This document shows, in pieces, positions 1 to 13,987 of a stretch of DNA of 64,000 nucleotides. The notes under the pieces are model-generated. The model saw nothing but the letters and a program-made list of their open reading frames with translations. It had not been told where the DNA came from and made no database searches. The translations under genes and the position numbers were made by a program. The stretch is taken from the NCBI GenBank assembly GCA_025061115.1, contig JANZKC010000003.1:160001-224000 (forward strand). The letters are read 5' to 3'. How positions within the stretch are numbered: position 1 is the stretch's first letter; each line of letters opens with the position of its first letter. Source of the DNA: Candidatus Culexmicrobium cathedralense (GTDB taxonomy: Archaea > Thermoproteota > Methanomethylicia > Culexarchaeales > Culexmicrobiaceae).

Positions 1-650
1 AATAGGGTTATGTTAGGGTGATTGTAGACTGCAGCCATTTTAGGCGATAAGATGCAGAGGGAGCAGTCGTCTGTGGGGAATGTGTAGCTTAGCTGCGCCA
101 TTCTACCTCCAATTGTCGGCTGTCTTTCAACCAAGTATACTTTGCAGCCTGAATCAGCCAGGTCTAAAGCGGCTTGAATGCCTGCAATTCCTCCTCCTAT
201 TACTAAAACTCTCTTACCAATCTCGATTTCTTTAACTTGAAGAGCTTGATTCAGCCTGGCCTTAGCGACGGCTGCTGCCACTTGATCTTTAGCTTTCAAA
301 GTGGCTCCTTCAGGATTGTCGGAGTGAACCCATGAGCACTGCTCTCTTATGTTGGCCATTTCAAGAAAGTATGGATTTAACCCAGCTTCTTCAATAAGTT
401 TTTTAAATGTAGCTTCATGGAATTTTGGGGAGCATGCTGCAATGACGATTCTATTCAGATGGTACTTCTTAATGTCTTCTAGAACCATTTTCTGGGCAGT
501 TTCCGAGCACATGTGCTCATGATCCTTGGCCAAGACAACGCCAGGTAAATTTCCAGCGAAATTTCTTACTTCTTCGACGTTGACGACGTTAGAAATGTTT
601 CCGCCGCAATGACAAATGTAAACGCCTATCCGTACGCCGTCGCTTGTCAT
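1..650 (-). CDS. hdrA: Heterodisulfide reductase subunit A (N-terminal part, runs off window)
   Basis: Manual translation from ATG at 650 (GGTGA RBS): MTSDGVRIGVYICHCGGNI...ACSPKFHE...MANIREQCSWVH...VLVIGGGIAGIQAALDLA...GGRMAQLSYTFPTDDCSLCILSPKM, hallmark HdrA motifs; not in the ORF track because it is truncated. Confidence 0.95.
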   Translation of the reverse strand, partial: MTSDGVRIGVYICHCGGNISNVVNVEEVRNFAGNLPGVVLAKDHEHMCSETAQKMVLEDIKKYHLNRIVIAACSPKFHEATFKKLIEEAGLNPYFLEMANIREQCSWVHSDNPEGATLKAKDQVAAAVAKARLNQALQVKEIEIGKRVLVIGGGIAGIQAALDLADSGCKVYLVERQPTIGGRMAQLSYTFPTDDCSLCILSPKMAAVYNHPNITL

Positions 651-787
651 TAGTATCACCGCTCATCATTGGTTGGATAAAAAGCATATTTATCGCTTTC
701 TTTAAAATTGTAGGCTTAACATGAGTATTTTCCGCGTAAATTATTTAAGATTATTATACATGATTAGCTCGCTGGAGATGGTTTGAA

Positions 788-1183
788 ATGAGTGAGGAGT
801 ATGAAGTTCGTGAAGGACTATATTATACTGAAGACCACACTTGGGCTGAAGTTTTGCCTGACGGAACCGTAAAGGTCGGCATAACGGATTATGCTCAGAA
901 AATGTTGAAGACAGTTAGGCGAGTTAGACTTGAAGAAGTTGGCGCAGAGGTTGAGCAGTTCGAGCCCTTTGGAATTATCGAGTCAACTAAAGCTACTAGC
1001 GACTTAATTTCCCCTGTTAGCGGAACGATTAAGAAGGTAAATGAAAGCGTCCTCCGCCAACCATCAATAGTTAACACTGACCCCTATGGCGCTGGTTGGC
1101 TAGTGATAATTGAGCCTTCAAATCTAGAGGAAGAACTTGAAAGCTTGCTGGACGCTGAAGGATATAAGGAGTACATGGTTTAG
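788..1183 (+). CDS. gcvH: Lipoyl-carrier protein, glycine cleavage H-protein family
   Basis: YYTEDHTW, VGITDYAQ, ESTKA lipoyl-lysine motif, SPVSG, VNTDPYGAGW. Confidence 0.93.
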   Translation: MSEEYEVREGLYYTEDHTWAEVLPDGTVKVGITDYAQKMLKTVRRVRLEEVGAEVEQFEPFGIIESTKATSDLISPVSGTIKKVNESVLRQPSIVNTDPYGAGWLVIIEPSNLEEELESLLDAEGYKEYMV

Positions 1184-1209
1184 CAGCGAATTAAATGCGA
1201 GGCAATCAT

Positions 1210-1674
1210 ATGACTAAACTTGAGCTTCAAAAAGTTCTTTTATATGATCCAAATAAGTGCTCGGGATGCCTCTACTGCATGATAGTATGCTCATATTCTC
1301 ATTATGGAGAAATTTCACTTGATAAAGCTCATCTGGAGGTCTTGAGAGACCCCTTTAATCCAAATATGTTTATAAATGCTCACTGTGCTCACTGTCAATA
1401 CCCATATTGTGAAGCCGCCTGCCCGCTTGATCCTAAAGCCATAGTTAAAGATGAGGATACTGGCTTCGTTTTGATAAATTCAGCTCGATGTATTGGGTGC
1501 AGAAGCTGCAATTATGCATGCCCAATATCAATCCCACATTTCGACGAGATATTCAAAGTAAGTGTCAAGTGCGATGCATGTAAAGGAGAATTTTTATGTG
1601 CCAAGTACTGCAGCACGGGCGCTCTGAGGGTTGTTACGAGGAAAGAGGCGATGGAGGCTCTTCAACATGAGTGA
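1210..1674 (+). CDS. 4x[4Fe-4S] polyferredoxin (CooF/HyfA/DmsB-like electron-transfer subunit)
   Basis: CSGCLYCMIVC, CAHCQYPYCEAACP, CIGCRSCNYACP, KCDAC...CAKYC; likely start ATG 1210 (track start 1195). Confidence 0.85.
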   Translation: MTKLELQKVLLYDPNKCSGCLYCMIVCSYSHYGEISLDKAHLEVLRDPFNPNMFINAHCAHCQYPYCEAACPLDPKAIVKDEDTGFVLINSARCIGCRSCNYACPISIPHFDEIFKVSVKCDACKGEFLCAKYCSTGALRVVTRKEAMEALQHE

Positions 1675-1945
1675 GAAGGAGCTTAAACTCTATCCTTTAA
1701 GAAAGAGGATTATCGGCTTGCCGCAGCCATTTAAGCCTCCAACAAGTGGGATATTGAAGTATGGTCACGTGCCCAGGCTATCAGGATTTTTGCAGAGAAC
1801 TAGATCTAAGCTTGGACTTTCAAAAGCTCCACCTACAGCCTATCAAGTTAAAGAAGCAGTTGAGGAAGTTCAAAATATAATTAGAACTTTAAAGCTGGAC
1901 ATAAAGTTTGCTTGGGATTGGAAGAAAAAGAGATTTCAGTATTAG
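1667..1945 (+). CDS. HdrC C-terminal-domain-like protein lacking Fe-S cysteines
   Basis: GHVP...RSKLGLSKAPPT...AVEEVQNII...FAWDW resembles the C-terminal tail of methanogen HdrC (GH..P...RK.LGL...PPT...ALEEVQ.....G..W); directly upstream of hdrB; no Cys. Confidence 0.65.
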   Translation: MSEKELKLYPLRKRIIGLPQPFKPPTSGILKYGHVPRLSGFLQRTRSKLGLSKAPPTAYQVKEAVEEVQNIIRTLKLDIKFAWDWKKKRFQY

Positions 1946-1958
1946 GAGATGAAACTAT

Positions 1959-2828
1959 ATGGCTAAGTACTCGCTTTTCCTTGGTTGCTACATTCCTTCA
2001 ATGCAGCCATTTGCTGAGGCTGCTCTCCGTAAAATATCTCCTGATCTAAACATTGAATTGCTAGATATTGTTGGAGCCACGTGCTGTCCCGTACCCGAAA
2101 TAGTTAGGCTAGTTGATGATGAAGCTTGGATTACAATTGCAGCTAGAAATTTAGCTCTAGCCGATTCAATGAGTCATGATATCCTCGTATTATGCAATGG
2201 GTGCTGGGAAACCCTTTATGAAGCGAGGGAAAAGTTGCTGCATGATATCAAGCTTAGAAATAAAGTGAATTCGAACTTGAAGCTCCTAGGTAAGAAGTTT
2301 ACTGGAAAAGCTGAAGTTAAGCATTATACTCAAGTGCTGGTTGAAGATGTAGGTTTGGATGCACTGAGAAGGAACATTAAAGTGGATTTAAAGAACTTGA
2401 AAGTTGCTGTTCATCCAGGATGCAAGTTGTATAAGAGTGATGGTGAGAAGCTAGCTAAGTACTTAAGAGATATTGTTGAAGCTTTGGGCGTCCAAGTAGT
2501 TGAATATGGAATTGAAAGAGTTTGCTGCGGATACCCCCTAATGCTTGCATCGGTTGATAAGGCAATTCATGAGAGAACGAAGTGGAAGTTAGATGCAATT
2601 AAGGATGCTAATGCTGATATGATCGTTGTTGCATGTCCAGCATGTTATGATCAATTAGAGAAGGCTCAACTTGCTCTCCGCGATGAAGGGCTAGAGTACA
2701 ATTTGCCAGTTCTTCACCTAACCGAGCTTATAGCCTTAGCTTTTGGCTATAAAGCTGGAGAGATTGGTTTAGACTTGCATGGAATAAGCTGTATGCCAGT
2801 AATTGAGAAACTGGAGGGAGTTAAGTGA
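1959..2828 (+). CDS. hdrB: Heterodisulfide reductase subunit B (two CCG domains)
   Basis: FLGC, TCCP, AARNLALA, CNGC, HPGC, CCGYP, ACPACYDQL, LPVLHLTELIALAFG. Confidence 0.93.
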   Translation: MAKYSLFLGCYIPSMQPFAEAALRKISPDLNIELLDIVGATCCPVPEIVRLVDDEAWITIAARNLALADSMSHDILVLCNGCWETLYEAREKLLHDIKLRNKVNSNLKLLGKKFTGKAEVKHYTQVLVEDVGLDALRRNIKVDLKNLKVAVHPGCKLYKSDGEKLAKYLRDIVEALGVQVVEYGIERVCCGYPLMLASVDKAIHERTKWKLDAIKDANADMIVVACPACYDQLEKAQLALRDEGLEYNLPVLHLTELIALAFGYKAGEIGLDLHGISCMPVIEKLEGVK

Positions 2829-3283
2829 GATTTAAGCAGAAAATGATGGTTTTCTCCCCATGGTTATTTCACCTACATGCTGGGGGCTGCAATGGCTGCG
2901 ATATTGAGCTGGTTGCAGCATTAACTCCCAGATTTGATGTTGAGCGTTTTGGAATAGTGTTGGTCGGTTCGCCAAAATTTGCTGACATTCTAGTTGTAAC
3001 GGGTCCTGTTCCAAAGCAAATCGCACCTTTTCTGAAGAGGGTTTATAATCAAGTTCCAGATCCAAAGGTAGTTGTTGCCGTTGGCTCATGCGCTTGCTCT
3101 GGAGGAGTATTTAATGATGAAGAAGGCGAGGAAACATATGCTATTGTGGGAGGAGTAGATAAGATAATTCCGGTTGACGTTTATGTGCCGGGGTGCCCTC
3201 CAAAGCCTGAAGCGATTATTGATGGTGTAGTTAAGGCGATTAAGATTTTAGCTGAGAAGGCTGGTGGTAGGGGTGAACATTAA
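2825..3283 (+). CDS. Group 4 [NiFe]-hydrogenase small subunit (NuoB/HycG-like)
   Basis: GGCNGCDIE, ADILVVTGPV, GSCACSGG, DVYVPGCPPKPE. Confidence 0.92.
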   Translation: MRFKQKMMVFSPWLFHLHAGGCNGCDIELVAALTPRFDVERFGIVLVGSPKFADILVVTGPVPKQIAPFLKRVYNQVPDPKVVVAVGSCACSGGVFNDEEGEETYAIVGGVDKIIPVDVYVPGCPPKPEAIIDGVVKAIKILAEKAGGRGEH

Positions 3284-3566
3284 GTATAAGTACTTGCCAT
3301 TCATTGCATCTCTAATTGCATCAACTACAGGCATCATATTTGCTTTCATCGTAGAAAGCCCCATATTGCTCTTATTCCTAATCGAGCTGGCATCAACTTC
3401 AGCGTTCTACTTACTATTCCTAGTTATTTTGTCTTCACTTCAACCTGAAAAGGTCGACATGGAAACTACTTTTGCATGTGGCTTGGCTAAACCTCCATAC
3501 CTAGATCCAAACGAACTCTATCAGTTCAAGTTTCCAATAGTTGAGGAGGAAGGGGAAAATGAGTAG
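3264..3566 (+). CDS. Small membrane subunit of hydrogenase complex (NuoA/MbhI-like)
   Basis: Two hydrophobic helices followed by FACG, reminiscent of the NuoA YECG loop; overlaps both neighbours. Confidence 0.55.
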   Translation: MVGVNIKYKYLPFIASLIASTTGIIFAFIVESPILLLFLIELASTSAFYLLFLVILSSLQPEKVDMETTFACGLAKPPYLDPNELYQFKFPIVEEEGENE

Positions 3567-5034
3567 CGAACTTATTTTAACATTAGCTATTCCATTAATT
3601 GCATCAATAACTGTCGCTTTACTTGAATCAAATGTAGCCCACGCTATTTCATTAACAGCTCTCGGGCTAACCCTAATAATAAATACTCACTTACTCACGA
3701 TTTCGCTGGCAGGTACAACTCAAGTTTGTGGCAGTCTAATTGGTGATCCTATTGGCCTGCTGATGAGTGAATTAATCCTAATCGTAGGTTTCATATCTGT
3801 AAGCTACTCCTTCCAATACTTCCCCGTAGGTCAAGATAGGAGAAGCCGCTTTTTTATGGCTTTAATGCTCGCCTTCGCTTCAACCCTTATTGGATTAGCA
3901 CTGTCTTCAAACATTCTAGGAATGCTTCTTTTCCTAGAAGCCTCAACAGTTCTCAGCGTCGTCCTAATAATTTATGGCGAGAGAGGTCGTAAAGCAATGC
4001 TTGCCGCTTCAATATACTTGGTAATGTCCATTGTAGAGTCATTATTGATAGTTGGTGGAATCTACTATTTAGCTAAGGCTTCAAACCTCCAGTTGTCAGC
4101 AATCAATATTTTCAATATTCAAAAATTGCACCCAGTAGCAGAGCCTGAAGCTTCAATTGCAGCTTTCCTTATATTGCTAGGTTTTGGTACTAAGGCTGGC
4201 ATCATACCTTTAGCGTTAATATGGCTTCCAATAACGCATGCAGAGGCTCCATCACCAGTTAGCGCTAATCTCTCAGGTGTGATGATTGAGGCTGCTTTCA
4301 TAGCTACACTCAGATGCGCGTATGCATTACTTCCTCATGCTTCAGATGTTGTTATTACGTTGCTCGCTGGCCTCGGAATGGCTAGCATCTGGGCTGGAAT
4401 TTTTGGCATGATAATAGATAGAGACTTAAAGCGGGTTCTAGCTTTTAGTAGCATTTTAAGCATGGGCAGTGTATGCATGGTAACTGGACTTAGCTTGGCA
4501 TCAAGTGGAGAAAACTTAGCTGCGGGACTTCAAGGCGTATTGTATTATTTAACTGCACATTCAGTTGGAAAGGCACTGCTCTTCTTAGGGAGCGGATCGT
4601 ACTTAAAGAAAATCGGAGAACGAAACTGGACTAAAATGGCTGGCGCAACCAAAATTTTGCCAATAACTTCAGCTCTTTGGATTGTTGGAGCAATTAGCAT
4701 AGCCGGACTGTTTCCTCCTGCGGCAGGATACTACGCTAAACACTTAATGATAAACTGTATAGATAACCTCGAAGTAGCGGTATGCGGCATACCTGCATTC
4801 TACTATAAGTTGTCCCTATATGCTGGAGGGATAGCGATATTTCTCATATTATTGGGGTTTACAGTATTTTCTCTTAGAGGAGCTGGAGAGCCAAATGATG
4901 TTTCAAAGTTAATGTTGATATCAAAAATTGCTCTTGCAGCAATCTGCATAATTTTAGGATTAGTTTCAACTAGCCTTGAACATGAGCTGTTCGCAACAGC
5001 TGTAAATGCAATCTTAAGATTAGGAGGTGGATGA
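3559..5034 (+). CDS. Antiporter-like ion-translocating subunit (NuoL/M/N, MrpD, HyfF family)
   Basis: About 14 hydrophobic segments; FLEAS, GFGTKAGIIP, WLPITHAEAPSPVSA, DLKRVLAFSS, HSVGKALLF. Confidence 0.9.
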   Translation: MSSELILTLAIPLIASITVALLESNVAHAISLTALGLTLIINTHLLTISLAGTTQVCGSLIGDPIGLLMSELILIVGFISVSYSFQYFPVGQDRRSRFFMALMLAFASTLIGLALSSNILGMLLFLEASTVLSVVLIIYGERGRKAMLAASIYLVMSIVESLLIVGGIYYLAKASNLQLSAINIFNIQKLHPVAEPEASIAAFLILLGFGTKAGIIPLALIWLPITHAEAPSPVSANLSGVMIEAAFIATLRCAYALLPHASDVVITLLAGLGMASIWAGIFGMIIDRDLKRVLAFSSILSMGSVCMVTGLSLASSGENLAAGLQGVLYYLTAHSVGKALLFLGSGSYLKKIGERNWTKMAGATKILPITSALWIVGAISIAGLFPPAAGYYAKHLMINCIDNLEVAVCGIPAFYYKLSLYAGGIAIFLILLGFTVFSLRGAGEPNDVSKLMLISKIALAAICIILGLVSTSLEHELFATAVNAILRLGGG

Positions 5035-6679
5035 CGTGGCTGGCATTAGGGAAGTAACCGCTGAACTTGAAAAAATATTATCACCAGACTTTGAAGTTGC
5101 CCGAACAGATGTTAATGGAAATCACATTTACATTAAAACTTCTCCAAACAAACTTCTAGATGCAGCTAGATACTTACTCCTAATTGACGCAAGGTTAGTT
5201 CACGTAACCGCTTCAGATATGGGAACTAAGGGCTTAAAGGTACTTCACATATATGGATTAGATCACTTAAAGCAGCACGCTCACATAATTTTGTATGCAC
5301 TTGTTCCCAGAAATGCTCCAAAGGTTCCTTCAGTTGCTGCTTTAACCTATCAAGCTTCGTGGGCTGAAAGAGAAACAATGGAACTTTTAGGCATAGAATT
5401 TGAAGGTCATCCTGACCCTCGACACATATTCCTTCCATTCGAGTGGCCTAAGCCAGTTGAAAGTGCTGAAGGCGAGTGGAATGAGGTTAAAGTTGAACGC
5501 CGTACTACTCTGCCAATAGGTCCATATCATCCAGCTCTTGTTGAAGGTGGATATTTCAAAGTTAAAGTTGATGGAGAAGAAATTATTGACGTTGATATTA
5601 AGGTTGGATTCAACCATAGAGGTGTGATGAAACTAGCTGAAAGAAGAAGTTTCTGGAAAGACATCTTCCTTGTTGGCAGAATATGTGGAATCTGCAACAC
5701 TCCCCACCGATTAACATTTGCTATCACTGCAGAAGCAATTGCAGGCATTACTCCTCCAGAAAGAGCAGAGTACATTAGAACTTTATTAGCAGAGCTCAAT
5801 AGGATACATAGCCACCTTCTATGGCTCGGCATAGCTTGTGAGCTTATAGGTTTCAAAACTTTACTCATGTGGGCATGGAAAATAAGGGAGCCAATTCAAG
5901 ATTGCATAGAGCTGCTAACTGGAAATAGAGTTCACATGGACGCTATAATTATTGGCGGAGTGAGGCGAGACGTCTCACAGAGCCAAATAACTAAGGTTGA
6001 AGAAAAGCTAAAGCAAGTTAAAAAGGAATTAGAGTCACTAGTTGAAGTAGTATCTACTCATAGCTTAGTTAGAGCGAGAACTGAGGATATTGGTGTGCTT
6101 ACGCTTGCAGACGCCAAGAATGGAGGAGCAGTAGGGCCAACTGCAAGAGCCAGTGGATGGAAAATTGATGTTAGGCGAGACAGCCCATATGCCGCGTATA
6201 GTGAAGAATATACGACTTGGGACGTAGTAGTCGATGATGGAAAAGACGTTCTTGCGAGAGTGATGGTTAGAGTTAAGGAAACATTAGTCTCGATAGATCT
6301 TTGCCTCCAATGTTTAGACGCGTTGAAACGTGTGGGCGGCCCGGTCATTATAAAGGATGTTAAGGAATTTCCCGAAGGTGAAGCTATAAGGAAAACTGAA
6401 GCTCCAAGAGGTGAATTATTCTACTACTTAGCATCAAATGGATTGAATATTCCGCAAACGGTTAGAATTAGAACTCCAAGCTATAGAAATATAGCTGCAC
6501 TAGTGTTTATGCTTAAAGGTTACACTCTTTCGGACGCACCAATAATTATCGGTAGTGTAGATCCCTGCTTCTCATGCACTGATAGAGTAATAATAGTAGA
6601 TGAGAAGAAAGGCAAGAAGGTGACTCTAAATTATGATGAATTCATGAGGGGTTTGGCGGTTAAAAAATTGGAGGAGTAG
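5027..6679 (+). CDS. Group 4 [NiFe]-hydrogenase large subunit, NuoC+D fusion (HycE/HyfG-like)
   Basis: N-terminal NuoC-like WAERETMELLGIEFEGHPDPR; L1 RICGICNTPH and L2 DPCFSCTDR intact; about 30-aa C-terminal extension typical of protease-matured subunits. Confidence 0.93.
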   Translation: MDDVAGIREVTAELEKILSPDFEVARTDVNGNHIYIKTSPNKLLDAARYLLLIDARLVHVTASDMGTKGLKVLHIYGLDHLKQHAHIILYALVPRNAPKVPSVAALTYQASWAERETMELLGIEFEGHPDPRHIFLPFEWPKPVESAEGEWNEVKVERRTTLPIGPYHPALVEGGYFKVKVDGEEIIDVDIKVGFNHRGVMKLAERRSFWKDIFLVGRICGICNTPHRLTFAITAEAIAGITPPERAEYIRTLLAELNRIHSHLLWLGIACELIGFKTLLMWAWKIREPIQDCIELLTGNRVHMDAIIIGGVRRDVSQSQITKVEEKLKQVKKELESLVEVVSTHSLVRARTEDIGVLTLADAKNGGAVGPTARASGWKIDVRRDSPYAAYSEEYTTWDVVVDDGKDVLARVMVRVKETLVSIDLCLQCLDALKRVGGPVIIKDVKEFPEGEAIRKTEAPRGELFYYLASNGLNIPQTVRIRTPSYRNIAALVFMLKGYTLSDAPIIIGSVDPCFSCTDRVIIVDEKKGKKVTLNYDEFMRGLAVKKLEE

Positions 6680-6681
6680 CT

Positions 6682-7674
6682 ATGCTTGTCGCACTTGCAG
6701 TATTAATTCCAATCATAAGCTTCATGATCGGCGTGTTATTGAATTTTGAGATTAGAAAGGTATTTGCAAGAGCTCAATATAGGCTGGGGCCGCTTTTAAC
6801 AATGTACAGCGATTTAAGGGGACTTTTAGGTTTTACGAGAATTTTGCAGCCGCTTTATGATATTTTAAAGCTTTCATATAAGGAGACTCTGATACCTAAA
6901 AGTGCAAATAAAATGCTCTTCACGTCATCTCCATGGATAAGCCTAATACTTGCCGTCGCAGCCTCATACTTCATATCCTATGGAGGATTAACGATTTTAG
7001 CTAACATCGAACTTAGCTTAATCTTCCTAACTTACCTCATCGTAGGAGTATCTCTATTCTGGATTATAGGTGCATCTGCAAGCTCATCACCCTGGGGCGC
7101 TATAGGTGTTAGGCGGGAAGCTGAACTTCTATTCTCAATTGAAGTTGCCCTGTTGTCGTCCATTTTTTCAGCCGCATTATTGGCAAACACTTTATCAGTT
7201 CAAGGCATAGTGAATGCGCAGTTGAAACTGTATCCATACATATTGTTGAACCCATTAGCTGCAATAACCTTCATGATAGCCCTTTTAGGCAAGTTGCAAT
7301 TAAAGCCATTCGACATTCCAGATGCTGAAGTTGAAATAGTGGCCGGTCCATTTACGGAGTATTCAGGAAAGCTTTTAGCATTGCTGCTTGCCTCCAAGTA
7401 CTTTTTAACGGCAATCATGACTGGATTATTCGTCAATATCTTCCTGGGCGGAGGGCAAATTCTACCTCCCACAAATTCATTAAACTTGGCAGTTAATTTC
7501 ATCGTCTTCCTAATACTATGCATTGCAGTGGCATTTATAGCCTCGTTAATCCACGCAGTAGCGCCGCGATTTAGAGTTGATCAGGGATTTAAGTGGGTCA
7601 TAACGCGCCTATGGCCGCTAGCCTTCGCATCGCTTGCCTTATCAATAGTCTTTAAAAGTATGGGGGTGTTATAG
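6682..7674 (+). CDS. Membrane subunit NuoH/HycD-like
   Basis: RKVFARAQYRLGP, QPLYDILKLSYKE, KPFDIPDAEVEIVAGPFTEYSG, PRFRVDQ. Confidence 0.92.
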   Translation: MLVALAVLIPIISFMIGVLLNFEIRKVFARAQYRLGPLLTMYSDLRGLLGFTRILQPLYDILKLSYKETLIPKSANKMLFTSSPWISLILAVAASYFISYGGLTILANIELSLIFLTYLIVGVSLFWIIGASASSSPWGAIGVRREAELLFSIEVALLSSIFSAALLANTLSVQGIVNAQLKLYPYILLNPLAAITFMIALLGKLQLKPFDIPDAEVEIVAGPFTEYSGKLLALLLASKYFLTAIMTGLFVNIFLGGGQILPPTNSLNLAVNFIVFLILCIAVAFIASLIHAVAPRFRVDQGFKWVITRLWPLAFASLALSIVFKSMGVL

Positions 7675-8247
7675 ATGCTGAAAGCCTTAAAGGAAGCTAT
7701 ATCTGCAATTTTTAACCCCGTGACAATCACGTATCCAGCTGGAAAACCTGAGGAAAAGTACAGTCAAATACCAGAAGGTTTGAGAGGGAAGCCGCAGTTC
7801 GATGATGAGAAGTGTATTGGGTGTGCAGCATGCACGGTTCAATGCAGTAGCGGCGCAGATACATTTCGCGACGAAGATGATAAGCGCATTATAGAAATAA
7901 GTTTGACAAAATGCATATTCTGCGGTAGATGTCAAGAAATATGCCCTCAAGAGGCAATTTCCCTAACTCAGGAATTCGAGTTGGCTAGCACTTCTAAAAA
8001 CAACCTAAAAGTTACCATTGAGCACAATCTATTAAAATGTGAAAACTGTGGAGCACCAATTACAACCGAAAAGCAGCTGGATAAAATTGTTGAGAGAATA
8101 TTAAGTCAAATTGATGAGAAAGCGAGAAAAATTGCTGAAGAAGACCTGCCTAAGTACATCCATCTATGTAGGAATTGTAGGAGAAAGTTGAGTTACAAGC
8201 TTAATACGCATCCAAGAAAGCATTACTTATATGTGGATAGCAGTTAG
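7675..8247 (+). CDS. Ferredoxin-like subunit NuoI/HycF-like with extra CxxC...CxxC site
   Basis: CIGCAACTVQC, CIFCGRCQEICP, CENCG...CRNCRR. Confidence 0.88.
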   Translation: MLKALKEAISAIFNPVTITYPAGKPEEKYSQIPEGLRGKPQFDDEKCIGCAACTVQCSSGADTFRDEDDKRIIEISLTKCIFCGRCQEICPQEAISLTQEFELASTSKNNLKVTIEHNLLKCENCGAPITTEKQLDKIVERILSQIDEKARKIAEEDLPKYIHLCRNCRRKLSYKLNTHPRKHYLYVDSS

Positions 8248-8279
8248 CTTTTATTAATCAGCCTGGAGGTTTGATTTGA

Positions 8280-8561
8280 ATGAAATTTAAGGCCGCATAT
8301 AAGGCAGCTAAGCTAATTAAAGTTTCAATTGAAGTTGAGGCTGGAAGAATTAAGAATATCAAGTTTACAGGCGATTTCTTCATATACCCAGAAGAAGCGC
8401 TTGGAAAGCTTGAGGAAGAACTTAAAGGTGCAGAGCTAAACGAGTATAAGTTACTTCAAATCGTAGAGTCCTTTTTCATCAGGGAGAACGTAACTACACC
8501 TTTAATTGAAGCAAGAGATTTCGTTAAAGCAATAATGAAAGCGGTTGGAAGGGAGATTTAG
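8280..8561 (+). CDS. lplB: Lipoate-protein ligase accessory (C-terminal) subunit
   Basis: IKNIKFTGDFFIYPEEALGKLEEELKG, the LplA C-terminal domain as a separate gene. Confidence 0.85.
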   Translation: MKFKAAYKAAKLIKVSIEVEAGRIKNIKFTGDFFIYPEEALGKLEEELKGAELNEYKLLQIVESFFIRENVTTPLIEARDFVKAIMKAVGREI

Positions 8562-9542
8562 GTGGTCGAATATATTAGAGTTTCAATTGGAACTGCTGCA
8601 GTACTAGGCTTGTCAAGAATTAGAATGGCAGCATCCCCTACTACAGCCTATCTAATGACATATTACCCCGGAAAATGCTTAGCTAAATGCAGTTTTTGCA
8701 CTCAATCCAGCGCAAGCATTACCGATGCGCAGTACTTATCTAGAGTATGCTGGCCCAAATTCAAATTCAGTGACGTTGTAAAAGCGCTATCCTCATGCAA
8801 AGAATTCAAGCGAATATGCCTTCAAACAATAATCTATCCAAATATGATCCAAGATGCAGTTGAAATAGTGTCGACTCTTAAAAGCCGTACGGCTTTGCCA
8901 ATATCAGTCTCCGTTCATCCTAAAAGTGTGGATGATGTTAAGCTTCTTATAAATGCAGGAGCGGATAGAATAGGTATTGGATTAGATGTAGCTACGCCAG
9001 AGCTTTTCAAGAAAATTAAGAGGCCATTTTCATGGGATAGAACATTGAAGTTTATTGAAGATTCTATAAAGTTTCTTGGTGAAGGACGTTTAACCTGCCA
9101 TTTAATTTACGGGCTTGGAGATACTGATGAAAGCTTCCTTAAACTTATCTACAAGCTCATGAAAAAAGGCGTTTTCACAAGCTTGTTTGCATTCACCCCA
9201 ATGGAGGGAACGCCTTTAGAAAATCTACCTCCGCCTAACCCATCAAAATATAGGGCAATACAGCTAGCTCATTACTTAATCACAAATAAAATTGCAGATA
9301 TCAGTGATTTCAAATTTCAAAATGGAGATTTAGTAGGTATATCTTTGGAGAAGAAATTGTTAGTTGAAGTTATTGAGAGTGGAAAACCATTCATAACGCG
9401 AGGCTGCCCAAACTGTAATAGGCCCTTCTATAATGAAAGTCCTAGAGGCCCAATATACAACTATCCTTCAATTGAATGGGTTAAAAAGGATATTAATATT
9501 ATCAAGCTTCAATTAAAGCAAGTTTTAGGTGAGATAATATGA
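8562..9542 (+). CDS. lipS2: Radical SAM lipoyl synthase component LipS2
   Basis: CLAKCSFC radical SAM motif plus TRGCPNCNRP, matching the TxGCPxC(N/D)RP signature of archaeal LipS2. Confidence 0.85.
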   Translation: MVEYIRVSIGTAAVLGLSRIRMAASPTTAYLMTYYPGKCLAKCSFCTQSSASITDAQYLSRVCWPKFKFSDVVKALSSCKEFKRICLQTIIYPNMIQDAVEIVSTLKSRTALPISVSVHPKSVDDVKLLINAGADRIGIGLDVATPELFKKIKRPFSWDRTLKFIEDSIKFLGEGRLTCHLIYGLGDTDESFLKLIYKLMKKGVFTSLFAFTPMEGTPLENLPPPNPSKYRAIQLAHYLITNKIADISDFKFQNGDLVGISLEKKLLVEVIESGKPFITRGCPNCNRPFYNESPRGPIYNYPSIEWVKKDINIIKLQLKQVLGEII

Positions 9543-10300
9543 GCGAGTGGCGCCTCATATATCTAAATGAATTTGATGGGTACTGGAACATGGCTATAGA
9601 TGAAGCAATGCTGATAATGAAGTCTAAAGGTAAAATTCCAAATACCCTTAGACTTTATCGATTCACTCCATCCGCGGTTACCATTGGATTTTTCCAATCG
9701 CCAAAAGAGGAAGTGAACATTGAGTTTTGCAGGAAGAATGGCATTGAAATAGTAAGACGCATAACTGGTGGAGGAACGGTATATCATGATGAAAATGGCG
9801 AAATAACTTACTCAATAGTTGTAAGTGAAAAGGATGCGCCTAAAGATATACTTAGAAGCTATGAACTATTCTGCAGTGGCATAGTCAAGGCATTGGAAAG
9901 ACTGGGACTTAAAGCTGAATTTCATCCAATAAATGATGTCCTAGTCTCGGGGAAGAAGATTTCAGGGTCGGCGCAAACAAGAAGGCGGGGAGTTGTTTTG
10001 CAGCATGGAACTTTAATGTACAATACAGATATATCAACACTAGCAGTTACGCTTAAGGTAATACCTGAAAAGCTTAAAGATAAGGGCGTAACTAAGCTCG
10101 AAGAAAGAGTGACAACGATTTCAAAGGCATTGAGTAGGCATGTTAGTAGGGATGAAGTTGTGCAAGCCATGATCGAAGGCTTTGCAGAAGCACTTCAAGT
10201 CAAATTTCATCATGATGAGCTGACAAGTGAAGAATTAGAACTGGCAGAAAAGCTGATGAAAGAGAAGTATTCAAAAGATGAGTGGAACTTTATGGTGTGA
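9539..10300 (+). CDS. lplA: Lipoate/octanoate-protein ligase catalytic subunit
   Basis: NMAIDEA, RRITGGGTVYHD, NDVLVSGKKISGSAQ, LQHGTL. Confidence 0.93.
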   Translation: MSEWRLIYLNEFDGYWNMAIDEAMLIMKSKGKIPNTLRLYRFTPSAVTIGFFQSPKEEVNIEFCRKNGIEIVRRITGGGTVYHDENGEITYSIVVSEKDAPKDILRSYELFCSGIVKALERLGLKAEFHPINDVLVSGKKISGSAQTRRRGVVLQHGTLMYNTDISTLAVTLKVIPEKLKDKGVTKLEERVTTISKALSRHVSRDEVVQAMIEGFAEALQVKFHHDELTSEELELAEKLMKEKYSKDEWNFMV

Positions 10301-10303
10301 ATT

Positions 10304-11155
10304 ATGATTAAAGCCTATAAGCCGCTGCCAAAATTTCCATCGATTTCCATAACTGGATCGTGGTGTGCCTTAAACTGCAAGTATTGCCAGGGGAAAGTGC
10401 TTAAGGAAATGATTCACGTGAGCTCTCCAACGCAACTCTACGCGTTATGTAGGCAATTAAAGAAAAGGCATGGAATTGTAGGATGCCTAATAAGTGGAGG
10501 TTTCAATAAAAAGGGAAAGTTGCCGATAAAAGCCTATTTGCCGGCGATTAAGGAGATAAAGAAAACGCTTGATTTAATCGTAAGCGTTCATGCGGGACTG
10601 GTAGATGGAAATTATGCTAAGGAATTGAGAGAAGCAAAAGTGGATATCGTAGACTTAAACATACTTGATCCTCAAACAATGAGTGAAGTAATGAATATGG
10701 ATTCAAACTGGGAAGACATCGAAAAAACGCTTGATGCGCTTCAAAATTTTGGTCCCCCATATACTGCACCACACATACTAATTGGAGCTTACTATGGAAG
10801 AATAAAGAGTGAATACGACTTAATTTCAATTCTTAAAGACTACGATCCGTACGTGATTGTTATGCTAATATTGCTTAAAGTTAGGGGAACACCCTTTGAA
10901 TCAATAGAGCCTCCCAAAGCAGAAGAGATAATAAAAATTTTCGACTATGCGCGAAAACTCATTCCGAAAGCTGAATTAGCATTAGGGTGCATGCGCCCCA
11001 GAGGTAATTACAGTGAAAAACTAGAATTTGAGCTAATAAGTAAAAATCTAATTGACAGAATAGTTTTACCTTCAACATTTAAGCCTAAATACCTTCCATT
11101 TTGCTGTTCACTTCCAAAAGAACTTGAAGAAAAAATAGTTAAAGAGTTATTATGA
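10304..11155 (+). CDS. lipS1: Radical SAM lipoyl synthase component LipS1
   Basis: SITGSWCALNCKYC, GCLISGG, LGCMRP and C-terminal FCCS, matching the GC(M/A)R and CC signatures of LipS1. Confidence 0.85.
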   Translation: MIKAYKPLPKFPSISITGSWCALNCKYCQGKVLKEMIHVSSPTQLYALCRQLKKRHGIVGCLISGGFNKKGKLPIKAYLPAIKEIKKTLDLIVSVHAGLVDGNYAKELREAKVDIVDLNILDPQTMSEVMNMDSNWEDIEKTLDALQNFGPPYTAPHILIGAYYGRIKSEYDLISILKDYDPYVIVMLILLKVRGTPFESIEPPKAEEIIKIFDYARKLIPKAELALGCMRPRGNYSEKLEFELISKNLIDRIVLPSTFKPKYLPFCCSLPKELEEKIVKELL

Positions 11156-11194: not shown

Positions 11195-12340
11195 TTATTT
11201 AAATTTTAATTTCATATAGAATATTGGTAGGAATGCAATTAACAGTATGGATATGATTGTTAGGGTTGTTTCAAATGGCACATAAGATAGCATTATACCT
11301 GTTACTATTGGGCCTGATGCTTGTCCAATATCTTTTATCGTTTCCATCGCTCCTATTGCAGCTCCATGCTTCTCTTCACTAGCTAATTCGGATATTAGTG
11401 GTGGGGTTGAGGCTGTGGTGAACGCCACGCCTACTGCAAATACCCCTATAAATGTTATTAGAGTTAGATAGCTGTTGGAAAATGCGGTTCCCATTATTCC
11501 AGCAGATGAAATCAATATTCCAACGGTAATTGTCTTTACTCTGCCTATTCTATCTGAAAGTCTTCCTGCATATGGTTTTAGAATTGTTATAATTAATAAT
11601 TGTATGGTGAATGTTAATCCAATTAGCCAAGGATCTATTCCTAACTTTCCCATATAAATTGGGAGAAAGGTTTCGAGGCTTTGCATTGCGAAGTAAGTTA
11701 CAGCCATAATGCTACTTGCAGTAATTATGTTGCTGCTAAAGATTAATGGTGAAGCTTTACGCGCTTCTTTTCTACTGAAGTTCTTTTCAACTTCAAATGC
11801 AGGTAGGTTGAAGAGTGCAATGAATGCTGCTAAACCAGCTAATCCACATGTTAGGTAAGCTTCTTTAAAGCTTGCTAAGCTTAATAATGCTCCTGCAATG
11901 CTGGGTGCAAGAAGCCTTCCGATCATAGTGGTTGATGAAAATATCCCCATCATTTCACCGCGCCTGGACTTGTACATGTCTGCTATGGATGCCATTGCTA
12001 CTGGAGTAAATGTGGCCGTTGCAATTCCATGATAAGCTCGTATTAATGCTAGTTGCCAAGCATCAGTTACAACTAGGTAGAGAAATGGAGATGATGCGAA
12101 GAAAAATCCTGAAGCAATTAATAATTTCTTCCTGCCGTAAATGTCTGATAATGCTCCAGCGGTTATATTTACTATTATTCCAGTAATTGTTGATGCTGCT
12201 GCAATGAATCCCAGCTCGCCTTCACTTACGCCAAGTTTTTTTGCAAATAAAGGTAATGTTGGAGATTTGGACATTGTTGAGCTGAGAATTGCTAGCAGTC
12301 CTGCTATTGACATTATGATGAATGCCTTGGAGGTGCGCAA
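11195..12340 (-). CDS. MFS transporter
   Basis: About 12 TM helices; GALSDIYGRKK and GRLSDRIGR motif A. Confidence 0.9.
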   Translation of the reverse strand: MRTSKAFIIMSIAGLLAILSSTMSKSPTLPLFAKKLGVSEGELGFIAAASTITGIIVNITAGALSDIYGRKKLLIASGFFFASSPFLYLVVTDAWQLALIRAYHGIATATFTPVAMASIADMYKSRRGEMMGIFSSTTMIGRLLAPSIAGALLSLASFKEAYLTCGLAGLAAFIALFNLPAFEVEKNFSRKEARKASPLIFSSNIITASSIMAVTYFAMQSLETFLPIYMGKLGIDPWLIGLTFTIQLLIITILKPYAGRLSDRIGRVKTITVGILISSAGIMGTAFSNSYLTLITFIGVFAVGVAFTTASTPPLISELASEEKHGAAIGAMETIKDIGQASGPIVTGIMLSYVPFETTLTIISILLIAFLPIFYMKLKFK

Positions 12341-12356
12341 ATTGAGTACCTAGCTT

Positions 12357-12856
12357 TCAGCTTTTAATCAGCTTTTTGAGGAATCTCAATCTTTCCATTC
12401 TACTCATTTTCTTCAATTCTTCTTTATGCTTAATTTCTAAGTCTTTAAGTTTAAAATACGTGTACAGTGCCTCCCAAATATTCACACCCATTTCTAGTGT
12501 TTCATAATCATTCTCGGTCATGAATCGAAGCCCACTTAATAATGCTTTTATGCCTACAGCTTCAGGTGCTTTCTCTAATTCGCCTTCAATGTCAGCTGCA
12601 TGAACAACTTCAGCAACCTTATACACATATGGGTCAGCAATATTATATTTTTCAACTATGACCTCAAAAGTGCACTTACCGTCTTTATGCCCTAATTCTA
12701 CCCCCTTATGTCAAATGGAGTTCCGTGTTCAGGCTTTAATTTTTCTTCCGGCCAGTTAATGAAGTTAAATTCTGCTTGGGGGTCAATAAACTTCTTTATT
12801 AACCAAGCACTTGCTGTTCTATCAACATAGGGAAAACTTCTCGTAACCCACTTCAC
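12357..12856 (-). pseudogene. Chromate-resistance ChrB C-terminal-domain protein, frameshifted
   Basis: GTG 12856 gives MKWVTRSFPYVDRTASAWLIKKFIDPQAEF...TPFDI, then a stop; adding one G to the G5 run (12701-12705) restores GVELGHKDGKCTFEVIVEKY..., continuous with track ORF 12357..12626. Confidence 0.75.
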
Positions 12857-13262
12857 ATAAATCACAATTAAGATATTTAATTAGAACCTCACATAAATTT
12901 TTCCAATTTAATAATCCACATCTTCTTAAGAAACATATAAACTTAAACTTTAAAGTTAATTTAATAATAAAATGTGAAATTAATTTATTCACTTAATAAT
13001 ATTGAGAATATAAAGTATAGCTCAATTAATACAGAAAACAATTATCAGAATAACTTTAGCAAAATGATGAAGAATGCTAAAGTAAACTTCAAGTGAAATC
13101 GCATGCTTTCTAGATGAAAATCATATTGGTGGCATTAAGTTGTCTAATGCTTATAACGTTGAATTCCCGGTCAGATCTGAATTTCAATAATAATTATCAA
13201 ATAGGTGCTTAAGCATAAATCTGCTTAATTAAATTGAATAGTCATGAAGGTTGATTGCGGAA

Positions 13263-13987
13263 ATGAGTATGGATCTTGAAAGATTTACGAAGGAAGTTAA
13301 GGATTATGCTATAAAAATGGCGCTTGCCTAGTAGGTATAGTTTCTCCTATTGATATTGATTCTAGATCTAAAATTTGGGTGGGTTGGAAAATTCAAAGTT
13401 ATACCAAGAAAACTTTTGAAATTATGCTCAAAGCGAGGTCAGTAATTGTTTTAGGCTATCATGTTTGTGATGACATCTTTGAAGTGGCAGTTAAAAGTGA
13501 TGGTAAGTGGATTTATCCGGAATATTTTCCTTTGAAGTTCGTTGAATTAAAGGTTATTCACTATTTGAGGATGAAGGGTTTCAATGCAGTTTCAGTTAAT
13601 AACATATTCCTCAAAACTCTAGCAAAGTTAGATGGATTCGGAAATTTCGGGAAGAATTCGCTAATAATAAATCCAATTTATGGTCCATGGCTGAGGTTTG
13701 CTGCGATATTAACTGATGCAGCGTTGAAGCATGACAAACCTTTTGAAGATGATTTGTGCGGTGACTGTGAAGAGTGCATTAAGGCTTGTCCAGTTAACGT
13801 ATTAACTCCATATAAGGTTGATGATGAGAAAAGCCTCGTCGGAATTCACTTGAATGATAGTCAGAATGCAAATTATAGTTATATTGAATTGTTCAGGAAA
13901 TATGAGCCATCAATAACGAGAAATTCGCATTTAATGTGCATGGAATGCCAAAAGGCTTGTAAGTATGGAAGAGAATTGCATTTTTAA
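13263..13987 (+). pseudogene. QueG/reductive-dehalogenase-like Fe-S protein, frameshifted
   Basis: MSMDLERFTKEVKDYAIK, then a shift at the A5 run (13313-13317) to GACLVGIV; GFGNFGKNSLIINPIYGPWLRFAAILTD, CGDCEECIKACP, CMECQKAC; the expected KC is KS. Confidence 0.7.

Follow-up and report, generated by a model that had tools for sequence, protein, structure and literature searches.

The 64-kb window analysed here (G000:C3:160001-224000, G000 being the label of the source genome and the window the whole stretch of Candidatus Culexmicrobium cathedralense DNA under analysis) opens with a run of plus strand genes that brings together a GcvH-like lipoyl protein, termed GcvH2, the heterodisulfide reductase subunit HdrB, a [NiFe]-hydrogenase and the genes for lipoylation. 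Gene identities were based on a list of open reading frames (ORFs) together with Pfam and NCBIfam profile scans. The run extends from 788 to 11155 and comprises 14 ORFs that overlap or are separated by gaps of 0–32 bp; an earlier note, made from the DNA alone, had described 15 co-oriented genes, and its tight plus strand packing was borne out but not its count. The identities that it gave to the gcvH-like, polyferredoxin, hdrB, six hydrogenase and lplB/lipS2/lplA/lipS1 genes were confirmed by the profile scans, as was its divergent hdrA, the N-terminal part of hdrA2 lying on the minus strand at 3-659. The locus is, with near certainty, the Ehe cluster of a Culexarchaeales archaeon, and its features are listed below with protein lengths in amino acids (aa).

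G000:C3:154639-160659, minus strand: divergent operon HdrA2-HdrC2-HdrB2-SdhB-like ferredoxin-TfrA/SdhA-like flavoprotein (family scans of upstream DNA)
3..659, minus strand: HdrA2, N-terminal 219 aa (NF040770, fragment 334 bits, full gene 999.7 bits)
660..787: divergent intergenic region hdrA2/gcvH2, 128 bp, A+T-rich (sequence inspection)
788..1183, plus strand: GcvH2, 131 aa, lipoyl Lys68, 0 Cys (PF01597 3.3e-37; NF002270, TIGR00527)
1195..1674, plus strand: Fd4 polyferredoxin, HybA/DmsB-type, four clusters (Fer4_11 7.7e-14; 16 Cys)
1631..1945, plus strand: HdrC-like remnant, 104 aa listed (TIGR03290 1.7e-7, model positions 83-141 of 144)
1959..2828, plus strand: HdrB, catalytic disulfide reductase subunit (PF02754 in two stretches, 4.8e-27; TIGR03288 242 bits)
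2825..3283, plus strand: NuoB-like [NiFe]-hydrogenase small subunit (PF01058 1.7e-35)
3264..3566, plus strand: orf100, 100-aa small membrane protein with two hydrophobic segments (hydropathy)
3541..5034, plus strand: Mrp/NuoL-type antiporter-like subunit, 497 aa (PF00361 2.4e-36; HyfB-like NF005086 3.8e-55)
5027..6679, plus strand: fused NuoC-NuoD-like large subunit (PF00346 5.3e-65, PF00329 2.5e-19, PF00374 1.8e-13)
6682..7674, plus strand: NuoH/HycD-like membrane subunit (PF00146 7.4e-64)
7675..8247, plus strand: HycF/HyfH-like 2x[4Fe-4S] subunit, 12 Cys (NF009053 2.7e-37)
8280..8561, plus strand: LplB, small subunit of bipartite lipoate-protein ligase (NF053749 75.1 bits, cut-off 65)
8562..9542, plus strand: LipS2, radical-SAM lipoyl synthase component (NF053743 363.7 bits, cut-off 270)
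9539..10300, plus strand: LplA, lipoate-protein ligase catalytic subunit (PF21948 4.3e-61; NF053750 278 bits)
10304..11155, plus strand: LipS1, radical-SAM lipoyl synthase component (NF053742 242.6 bits, cut-off 230)

GcvH2 scored above both GcvH cut-offs (NF002270 145.1 bits, cut-off 117; TIGR00527 123.6, cut-off 115.85) and keeps its lipoyl lysine, K68 in IESTKATSDLISP, as had been claimed for it. It shares 48% identity with a canonical GcvH1 encoded on contig C1, where gcvT adjoins gcvH1 and not gcvH2. Residues D72, I74 and S93 are specific to GcvH2, the position of S93 being occupied by Glu in 18 of 18 canonical GcvH sequences, and GcvH2 thus departs from GcvH proper in having neither gcvT/gcvP linkage nor this conserved Glu. 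Quick maximum-likelihood analysis of 55 GcvH-like sequences placed Culexarchaeales GcvH2 in a clade of its own (support 99) and recovered a clade (support 98) of Culexarchaeales GcvH2, the GcvH2 of the related groups f4 and f6 and other f4 copies, with gcvT-linked Culexarchaeales GcvH1 outside. Culexarchaeales and f4 GcvH2 as a single clade were neither rejected in this tree (approximately unbiased (AU) test, p = 0.43) nor demonstrated. By identity, neighbourhood and phylogeny GcvH2 is a paralog distinct from the GcvH1 of glycine cleavage.

LplB, LipS2, LplA and LipS1 are present in one copy each in the genome, all within this gene run. LplB, LipS2 and LipS1 exceeded their cut-offs, and LplA reached 278 bits against the NF053750 cut-off of 480, with 4.3e-61 for PF21948. 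Genome-wide, PF00364 matched three proteins, GcvH1, GcvH2 and a biotin carrier encoded next to a carboxylase, and the lipoyl acceptors of the genome are GcvH1 and GcvH2 only. As the lipoylation genes are single-copy, the kit must also serve canonical GcvH1.

In HdrB both CCG motifs are complete (C10, C42, C43, C79, C82 and C155, C189, C190, C226, C229), the 10 motif cysteines being invariant in the alignment, and the protein aligns full-length with the solved HdrB 5odc_B (3e-59); its TIGR03288 score of 242 bits is below the cut-off of 345. The Fd4 polyferredoxin carries 16 Cys in four CxxCxxCxxxC-like motifs and always stands immediately 5' of the HdrC-like and HdrB genes in Ehe, Ehd and Asgard loci. 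The similarity of the HdrC-like protein is confined to the C-terminal third of HdrC. Its designation as hdrC-like holds in that a weak HdrC match was obtained, but with 0 Cys it is no Fe-S protein, and the two [4Fe-4S] clusters of HdrC that are a feature of HdrBC are missing from it. Its start is likely the ATG at 1667, giving 92 aa, and orthologues in related loci have 92–100 aa.

The genes at 2825-8247 encode a group 4 [NiFe]-hydrogenase, as NuoB-, NuoH-, HycF- and antiporter-like partners and the ligand motifs are all present. The Ni-Fe ligand motifs of the 5027..6679 product are intact (RICGIC at residue 218, DPCFSC at residue 512) and a single gene matched PF00361, in agreement with what the earlier note had read from the letters. 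This antiporter-like subunit (3541..5034) has approximately 12 hydrophobic segments by hydropathy and is presumed to be an ion-translocating module. The product of orf100 (3264..3566) had no Pfam or NCBIfam match, and its orthologues show 40–46% identity in Culexarchaeales and 29–38% in Ehd loci. Hydrogenase maturation genes in the genome comprise HypD and a HycI-like gene. In the HycF-like subunit (7675-8247) the two [4Fe-4S] motifs are supplemented by four additional cysteines (C122, C125, C164 and C167, as CxxC...CxxC), which may bind a further metal site.

The intergenic region at 660..787 contains the TATA-like elements tttaaaat and attatttaag and a GGAG ahead of the ATG at 788 on sequence inspection, and is presumed to be the shared promoter region of hdrA2 and gcvH2. 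HdrA2, the first gene product of the divergent operon, has 800 aa and a fused MvhD-like C-terminus, and the TfrA-like flavoprotein of this operon scored 318 bits, below its family cut-off. The SdhB/TfrB-like Fe-S protein has 230 aa. An identity of this protein as CdhA (CO dehydrogenase) was rejected, as only 68 residues match, in a ferredoxin stretch of the 784-position CdhA model; CO oxidation by the cluster is therefore unsupported, and the protein looks like a subunit of the SdhB/TfrB type.

GcvH2 orthologues (at least 54% identity) were searched for in all 62 genomes of the class, a first sample having comprised 41, and were found in 13 of the 62: nine of 12 Culexarchaeales genomes, four of four in the second family, f4, none of 32 in f5 and none of 10 in f7. 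Identity across the nine Culexarchaeales genomes was 73–100%, and the f4 loci bear Nezhaarchaeales or Methanomethylicia labels. In all nine of these Culexarchaeales genomes GcvH2 is followed by Fd4 and the HdrC-like gene, with HdrB next in eight and the ninth contig ending earlier, and HdrA2B2C2-SdhB-like-TfrA-like adjoins GcvH2 in every Culexarchaeales locus that is long enough. In the groups f1 and f2 the HdrA2 operon is divergent; in f3 it lies immediately upstream in the same orientation. Lipoylation genes lie 3' of the hydrogenase genes in 5/5 Culexarchaeales loci that extend beyond HycF (the window, L095, L043, L044 and L045), with a peptidase gene, and in one genus an OsmC-like gene, between hydrogenase and lipoylation genes in f3. 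A different order is found in f4, where LplB-LplA-LipS2 is divergent from GcvH2-CoADR-like-Fd4-antiporter-NuoC-HdrB-NuoD-NuoH-HycF-NuoB-HycI (CoADR, CoA-disulfide reductase); it is complete in three of the four loci, a contig end cutting the fourth. The linkage of GcvH2, HdrB, hydrogenase and lipoylation genes is therefore no chance arrangement, as it recurs wherever related contigs reach far enough, and the synteny search that the earlier note had proposed came out in favour of it (9/9 Culexarchaeales with GcvH2 and 4/4 f4). An apparent joint loss of Ehe-HdrB and GcvH2 in genome G003 was discarded as an assembly gap, its contig ending inside the cluster (NuoH-HycF-LplB-LipS2-x-LplA-LipS1).

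The OsmC-like gene stands directly beside LplB-LipS2, 3' of the Ehe genes (L044:3335-3859, G006:C2). OsmC/Ohr peroxidases are reducible by lipoyl proteins. An antioxidant side role of GcvH2 via the OsmC-like protein is possible.

The assembly comprises 1.98 Mb in 25 contigs, with 99.99% estimated completeness and 7.65% estimated contamination. As the gene run and the divergent operon lie together on one 263-kb contig, their linkage is unaffected by this contamination, and the genome-wide presence and absence calls carry it as a caveat. The closest public loci bear Culexarchaeia genus names, at 64–74% HdrB identity. Searches of the genome found no mcrA, ComA, 2-oxoacid dehydrogenase E2 or classical LpdA, and did find a gcvT-gcvH1 pair and gcvP on contig C1. 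The genome check suggested in the earlier note thus divided, mcrA, ComA and LpdA being undetected while gcvT, gcvH1 and gcvP are present, and its statement that the window holds no gcvP/T/L or 2-oxoacid dehydrogenase gene stood, with no gcvP, gcvT, E2 or Pyr_redox_dim match inside the 64 kb. The sole Pyr_redox_dim protein of the genome, on contig C2, was considered as LpdA and set aside (lipoamide dehydrogenase 148 bits versus CoA-disulfide reductase 332 bits); it belongs to the CoA-disulfide-reductase/NADH-oxidase family, and its neighbours (a 2-hydroxyacid dehydrogenase, a GTPase and a ribosomal protein) gave no functional lead. In the 41-genome sample mcrA was found in 0/12 Culexarchaeales, 0/4 f4 and 16/22 f5 and f7 genomes.

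The four f4 genomes (92–98% complete, 1–4% contamination) amount to a natural experiment. Genome searches found GcvT, GcvP and E2 in none of the four; their Biotin_lipoyl matches are three GcvH-like genes only, and they keep LplA, LplB, LipS2 and a LipS1-like gene. Of these GcvH-like genes, copy A has as neighbours a CoADR-like gene together with the HdrB-hydrogenase cluster; copy B lies next to genes for a CCG-domain protein and for an FAD/Fe-S oxidase of the GlcD-like type, and copy C next to a LipS1-like radical SAM gene. Lipoyl proteins kept where GcvT, GcvP and E2 were not found make it more likely that the lipoyl group acts as a redox carrier, and these genomes, in which lipoate is kept with no canonical lipoate enzyme detected, are the strongest support found here for such a role. 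Further contexts were found in f6, with the order GcvH2-like-CoADR-like-HdrD-like (Fer4 and two CCG domains)-EtfB-EtfA, and in f7, where the mcrA-positive genome G024 has a gene for a 788-aa HdrA followed after approximately 80 bp by a GcvH-like gene of the GcvH2-like clade (L128:7826-10731, C6). Lipoyl-carrier paralogs beside disulfide enzymes of the CCG type are thus a recurrent arrangement in the class.

The cluster was named Ehe in Culexarchaeia and described in the main text of Kohtz et al. 2022 (ISME Commun 2:86, PMC9723716) as a [NiFe]-hydrogenase joined by HdrBC plus an antiporter subunit, with SdhA, 'CdhA', HdrA2B2C2 and GcvH encoded alongside. The same text reports no full pathway for coenzyme M (CoM) and coenzyme B (CoB) in Culexarchaeia, and proposes GcvH as a possible disulfide holder that interacts with HdrB and/or HdrA2B2C2, so that the central inference drawn here is not new. 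The present cluster has everything by which Ehe was described (hydrogenase with HdrB, HdrC-like protein and one antiporter; GcvH, HdrA2B2C2, SdhA-like protein and 'CdhA'; no mcr), with no structural difference between the two. Lpl, LipA, LipS1/2 and CoA-disulfide reductase are unmentioned in the main text of that paper, in which 'lipo' occurs only twice, its supplements being unseen. Apart from Kohtz et al. 2022, literature searches found no paper on the linkage of GcvH, HdrB, hydrogenase and lipoylation; HdrB-linked group 4 hydrogenases do come up in a 2025 paper on Methanonezhaarchaeia (PMC12700198), but its accessible text gave no match for GcvH or 'lipo'. Added here are the single-copy lipoylation genes within the operon, the paralog status of GcvH2 and the failure to find LpdA and E2, together with the f4 gene order with its CoADR-like partner, further GcvH-like/CCG contexts and f4 lipoate without the classical enzymes. 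The description of Ehe also gains a Cys-free 'HdrC' and a 'CdhA' that is, from its profile matches, SdhB/TfrB-like.

Taken together, the substrate of HdrB is probably the lipoyl disulfide carried by GcvH2. In the proposed mechanism H2 would be split at the Ni-Fe site of the NuoD-like subunit and electrons would pass over the NuoB-like cluster, the HycF-like clusters and Fd4 to the noncubane clusters of HdrB. Fd4 would be the wire between hydrogenase and HdrB, supplying the clusters missing from the HdrC remnant, whose Cys-free tail may only clamp HdrB. HdrB would then reduce the dithiolane of lipoyl-K68 on GcvH2, itself predicted to be lipoylated by the LplAB/LipS1/LipS2 of the same predicted operon. 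GcvH2 would thereby carry two electrons in protein-bound form and be the equivalent of CoM-S-S-CoB in a host where mcr and CoM synthesis were not found; by analogy, the lipoyl-lysine arm, an acyl amide of medium chain length that bears thiols, may be called chemically similar to the 7-mercaptoheptanoyl part of CoB. The potential of H2 is approximately -0.41 V. For lipoamide, E0' is given as -0.29 V (PMC6067878). At standard potentials, reduction of lipoyl to dihydrolipoyl by H2 would accordingly yield approximately -24 kJ/mol, which could pay for about one ion via the single antiporter-like subunit, and the reverse, gradient-driven H2 evolution, would be equally possible.

Re-oxidation of dihydrolipoyl-GcvH2 may in turn fall to HdrB2 in the divergent HdrA2-HdrC2-HdrB2/SdhB-like/TfrA-like unit, which would represent split thiol:fumarate-reductase-like parts mounted on a bifurcating-type HdrA. 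TfrAB is the thiol:fumarate reductase of methanogens, with CoM-SH and CoB-SH as thiols (family models NF004900 and NF004898). The divergent operon holds its parts split into a TfrA-like protein, an SdhB/TfrB-N-like protein and the CCG protein HdrB2; unlike TfrAB, however, these are joined to an HdrA2 with fused MvhD, and all scores lie below the family cut-offs. We infer that the thiol for this TfrAB-like unit would be dihydrolipoyl-GcvH2 instead of CoM-SH and CoB-SH. Fumarate reduction has a potential of approximately +0.03 V and could thereby drive the reduction of ferredoxin. In the opposite direction the unit could oxidise succinate, as Kohtz et al. suggest (PMC9723716). In f4 and f6 the CoADR-like flavoprotein beside GcvH2 might connect the carrier to NAD(P)H, comparable to the dihydrolipoamide dehydrogenase of archaeal sHdr clusters. 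A related unit was also observed on a bacterial contig (L079:3738-12456, from a metagenome-assembled genome (MAG) titled Ruminococcus sp.), with HdrB2-HdrC2-HdrA2, HydG-like, SdhB-like and TfrA-like genes at 38–56% identity to the archaeal divergent operon and no GcvH; the HdrA2/fumarate-reductase-like unit thus also occurs by itself and has crossed domains.

The cluster can be compared with several known systems. In HdrABC-MvhAGD (5odc) HdrB is alike over its full length and both noncubane-cluster Cys motifs are kept, whereas the present operon is without HdrA, has as HdrC a Cys-free tail and a separate four-cluster ferredoxin, and has a group 4 membrane hydrogenase as electron partner in a genome where mcrA and ComA were not found. 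With the Ehd cluster of Methanomethylicia the present one has its core gene order in common (orf100/antiporter, Fd4, HdrC-like, HdrB, NuoCD, NuoH, HycF and NuoB), and the Ehd HdrBs fall in one clade with the present HdrB; Ehd is assumed in the main text of Kohtz et al. to reduce CoM-S-S-CoB (PMC9723716). The sHdr system requires the lipoyl protein LbpA, with electrons proposed to pass via lipoamide (PMC6067878), and is alike in tying an Hdr-like enzyme to a GcvH-like protein and LplA/LipS1/LipS2 (PMC6067878, PMC10332631). Archaeal sHdr clusters moreover link a disulfide-reductase flavoprotein (PMC6067878), as the CoADR-like gene does in f4 and f6. In contrast to sHdr, the present HdrB sits on a membrane hydrogenase and not in an sHdrC1B1AHB2C2 set, the host is anaerobic, no sulfur transferases were seen in the cluster, and GcvH2, having no Cys, is without the cysteine pair typical of most LbpAs according to the text of PMC6067878. 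The Group III Hdr-like/LbpA/EtfBA clusters of Actinobacteria and Firmicutes (PMC6067878) resemble f6 in combining a lipoyl protein, a CCG enzyme and Etf; this likeness is found in the archaeal f6 relatives and not in the window, and f6 adds a CoADR-like gene.

The distribution and phylogeny of HdrB supply arguments against the lipoyl reading. The Fd4-HdrC-like-HdrB-hydrogenase core extends to more lineages than does the linkage to GcvH2, and was found in mcrA-positive Methanomethylicales (as Ehd) and in Bathyarchaeia-, Nitrososphaeria-, Hermod-, Heimdall- and Promethearchaeota-labelled loci. Neither GcvH nor lipoylation genes accompany Ehd in mcrA-positive genomes, and no GcvH was found within approximately 10 kb on each side of any of these wider clusters. 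The five Asgard genomes have one GcvH each, elsewhere, plus GcvT. The nearest relatives of the present HdrB (Asgard loci and a second cluster in genome G009) share 55–62% identity and belong to clusters without GcvH. Asgard clusters have group 3b hydrogenase genes before them and a divergent CoADR-like gene after them, the latter in 6/6 loci with enough flank and again without GcvH, which equally fits a small-molecule disulfide. In a quick tree of 49 HdrB sequences all hydrogenase-linked HdrBs formed one clade (support 80), within which the Ehe HdrB of Culexarchaeales has the Asgard type as its sister group (100), f4 lies near the clade base and methanogen Ehd falls in between. A single clade of GcvH2-linked HdrBs was rejected in this quick tree (AU p = 2.9e-5), the group having been chosen post hoc. 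The phylogeny check that the earlier note had named thus went against its claim, as HdrB shares a clade with Ehd HdrBs of mcrA-bearing Methanomethylicales and has GcvH-less Asgard HdrBs as nearest relatives; clusters without GcvH in the clade mean that HdrB of this clade uses more than one disulfide or that GcvH acts in trans. The position of the lipoylation kit is by itself weaker evidence, as the kit also serves GcvH1, and all evidence comes from MAGs, including G000 at 7.65% contamination. Complex prediction for HdrB with GcvH2 gave an ipSAE of 0.00 in both runs (two alignments), with no control pairs run, and counts neither for nor against the pairing.

Three side observations concern these relatives. 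The Culexarchaeales genome G009 carries its second, Asgard-type HdrB-hydrogenase cluster in addition to Ehe (L097:4955-16664, G009:C1), with group 3b hydrogenase genes, Fd4, HdrC-like, HdrB (55%), NuoCD, antiporter, NuoH, HycF and NuoB and no GcvH; a second 'Ehd-like' cluster in one MAG is mentioned in the main text of Kohtz et al. (PMC9723716). The only GcvH of the Asgard genome G041, approximately 2 kb from HdrC-HdrB-OFOR-HdrA (OFOR, 2-oxoacid:ferredoxin oxidoreductase), was considered unconvincing and left unused, as it lies on the opposite strand with two unknown genes between. One in-frame stop was seen in the tblastn-defined HdrB range of L055:1159-2019, from a MAG titled Heimdallarchaeota.

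These GcvH-less clusters speak for an alternative in which HdrB reduces a small disulfide or sulfane (CoA disulfide or persulfide, polysulfide or another thiol cofactor) and GcvH2 and the lipoylation genes are neighbours for other reasons. Homologous clusters without GcvH occur in Asgard, Bathyarchaeia-labelled and methanogenic Methanomethylicales loci, the CoA-disulfide-reductase/NADH-oxidase-family flavoprotein stands at 6/6 Asgard clusters with group 3b hydrogenase genes ahead, and the same flavoprotein family is found inside the f4 cluster. This explanation is nevertheless considered unlikely, as GcvH2 stays with Fd4/HdrB or with the CoADR-like gene across two gene orders, family scans showed no thiol-cofactor biosynthesis genes in the cluster, and f4 has three lipoyl proteins, placed beside CCG or flavoprotein redox genes, with no canonical lipoate enzyme found. 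A scaffold or relay function for lipoate assembly, comparable to that of GcvH in Bacillus, would make GcvH2 a partner of Lpl/LipS and not of HdrB, and could draw on its place in one predicted operon with the sole lipoylation genes and on its position in f4 directly beside LplB-LplA-LipS2. In f3, however, GcvH2 is next to Fd4-HdrB with the lip genes more than 7 kb off behind unrelated genes, LplA matched no LipL-type amidotransferase family above cut-off, and no E2 acceptor was found in G000 or the four f4 genomes, making such a role highly improbable.

The earlier note had also offered, as one option, that the complex replaces dihydrolipoamide dehydrogenase in amino-acid fermentation. A rival explanation of this kind makes the complex the missing L-protein of glycine cleavage, re-oxidising the dihydrolipoyl H-protein from GcvP/GcvT and venting H2 with the aid of the gradient. 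The genome indeed has gcvT, gcvH1 and gcvP with classical LpdA not found, group 4 is the usually H2-evolving type of hydrogenase, and the glycine cleavage system is placed in peptide catabolism in the main text of Kohtz et al. (PMC9723716). The H protein of the operon is, however, a diverged paralog (48%) that is no gcvT neighbour and has lost an otherwise invariant Glu, the same linkage is kept in f4 where GcvT and GcvP were not found, and the CoADR-like flavoprotein could fill the L role just as well. Replacement of dihydrolipoamide dehydrogenase is thus not specifically supported, and the L-protein explanation appears very unlikely. The wider claim of a lipoyl substrate fared better, with the recurrent linkage, the lack of any mcrA, ComA or LpdA detected in the genome and the f4 genomes in its favour, and the presence of gcvT-gcvH1/gcvP and the HdrB clade against it. 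Sulfur oxidation or trafficking of the sHdr/LbpA type, in which the lipoyl protein would carry sulfane sulfur to an Hdr-like complex, has in its favour the same kit of Hdr-like proteins, GcvH-like lipoyl protein and LplA/LipS1/LipS2 (PMC6067878, PMC10332631). We regard it as scarcely credible here, as GcvH2 has 0 Cys in comparison to two conserved Cys in LbpAs, some archaeal ones excepted (PMC6067878), HdrB is wired to a hydrogenase and the hosts are anaerobes. Sulfur transferases are moreover said to be always present in sHdr systems (10.1101/2023.12.18.572138), whereas no DsrE, TusA or rhodanese was seen among the genes annotated in the 15 kb ahead of the window and in its first 14 kb, the whole genome not having been searched for them.

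Other genes around the cluster were also recorded. Downstream of lipS1 lie a major facilitator superfamily (MFS) transporter (11195-12340, minus strand), an 89-aa ChrB C-terminal-domain fragment (12357-12626, minus strand) and a 202-aa QueG/reductive-dehalogenase-like Fe-S protein (13379-13987, plus strand), none of which (11195-13987) has an evident tie to the hydrogenase-lipoylation cluster. A third Hdr set 32 kb upstream of the window (G000:C3:124369-129005, L111) consists of HdrC, HdrB (31%) and a divergent HdrA (49%), and probably corresponds to the HdrABC paired with MvhADG by Kohtz et al.

Extended beyond the window, the lipoyl-carrier reading would make GcvH-like proteins dedicated disulfide/dithiol carriers for CCG enzymes (HdrB/HdrD/GlcF-type) in non-methanogenic lineages of the Methanomethylicia class, with Ehe and the HdrA2 unit forming a hydrogen/fumarate chain and f4 using lipoate solely in this way; this generalization is put forward tentatively, as something that could well prove too broad. 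If true, it would constitute a third role of lipoate, added to those in the 2-oxoacid/glycine cleavage complexes and in the oxidation of sulfur by sHdr. Ehe would be an ion-pumping H2:lipoyl oxidoreductase tied to a possibly bifurcating dihydrolipoyl:fumarate (plus ferredoxin) oxidoreductase, giving a hydrogen/fumarate energy chain with a lipoyl protein in place of CoM-S-S-CoB. What Hdr-type disulfide reductases act on in the many archaea and bacteria without CoM or CoB synthesis has long been asked, and a lipoyl protein as the 'heterodisulfide' of non-methanogenic methanogen relatives would be a concrete and testable answer, giving lipoate a further physiological function. Such an answer would in addition be relevant to the rewiring of energy conservation at the loss or gain of methanogenesis in TACK archaea.

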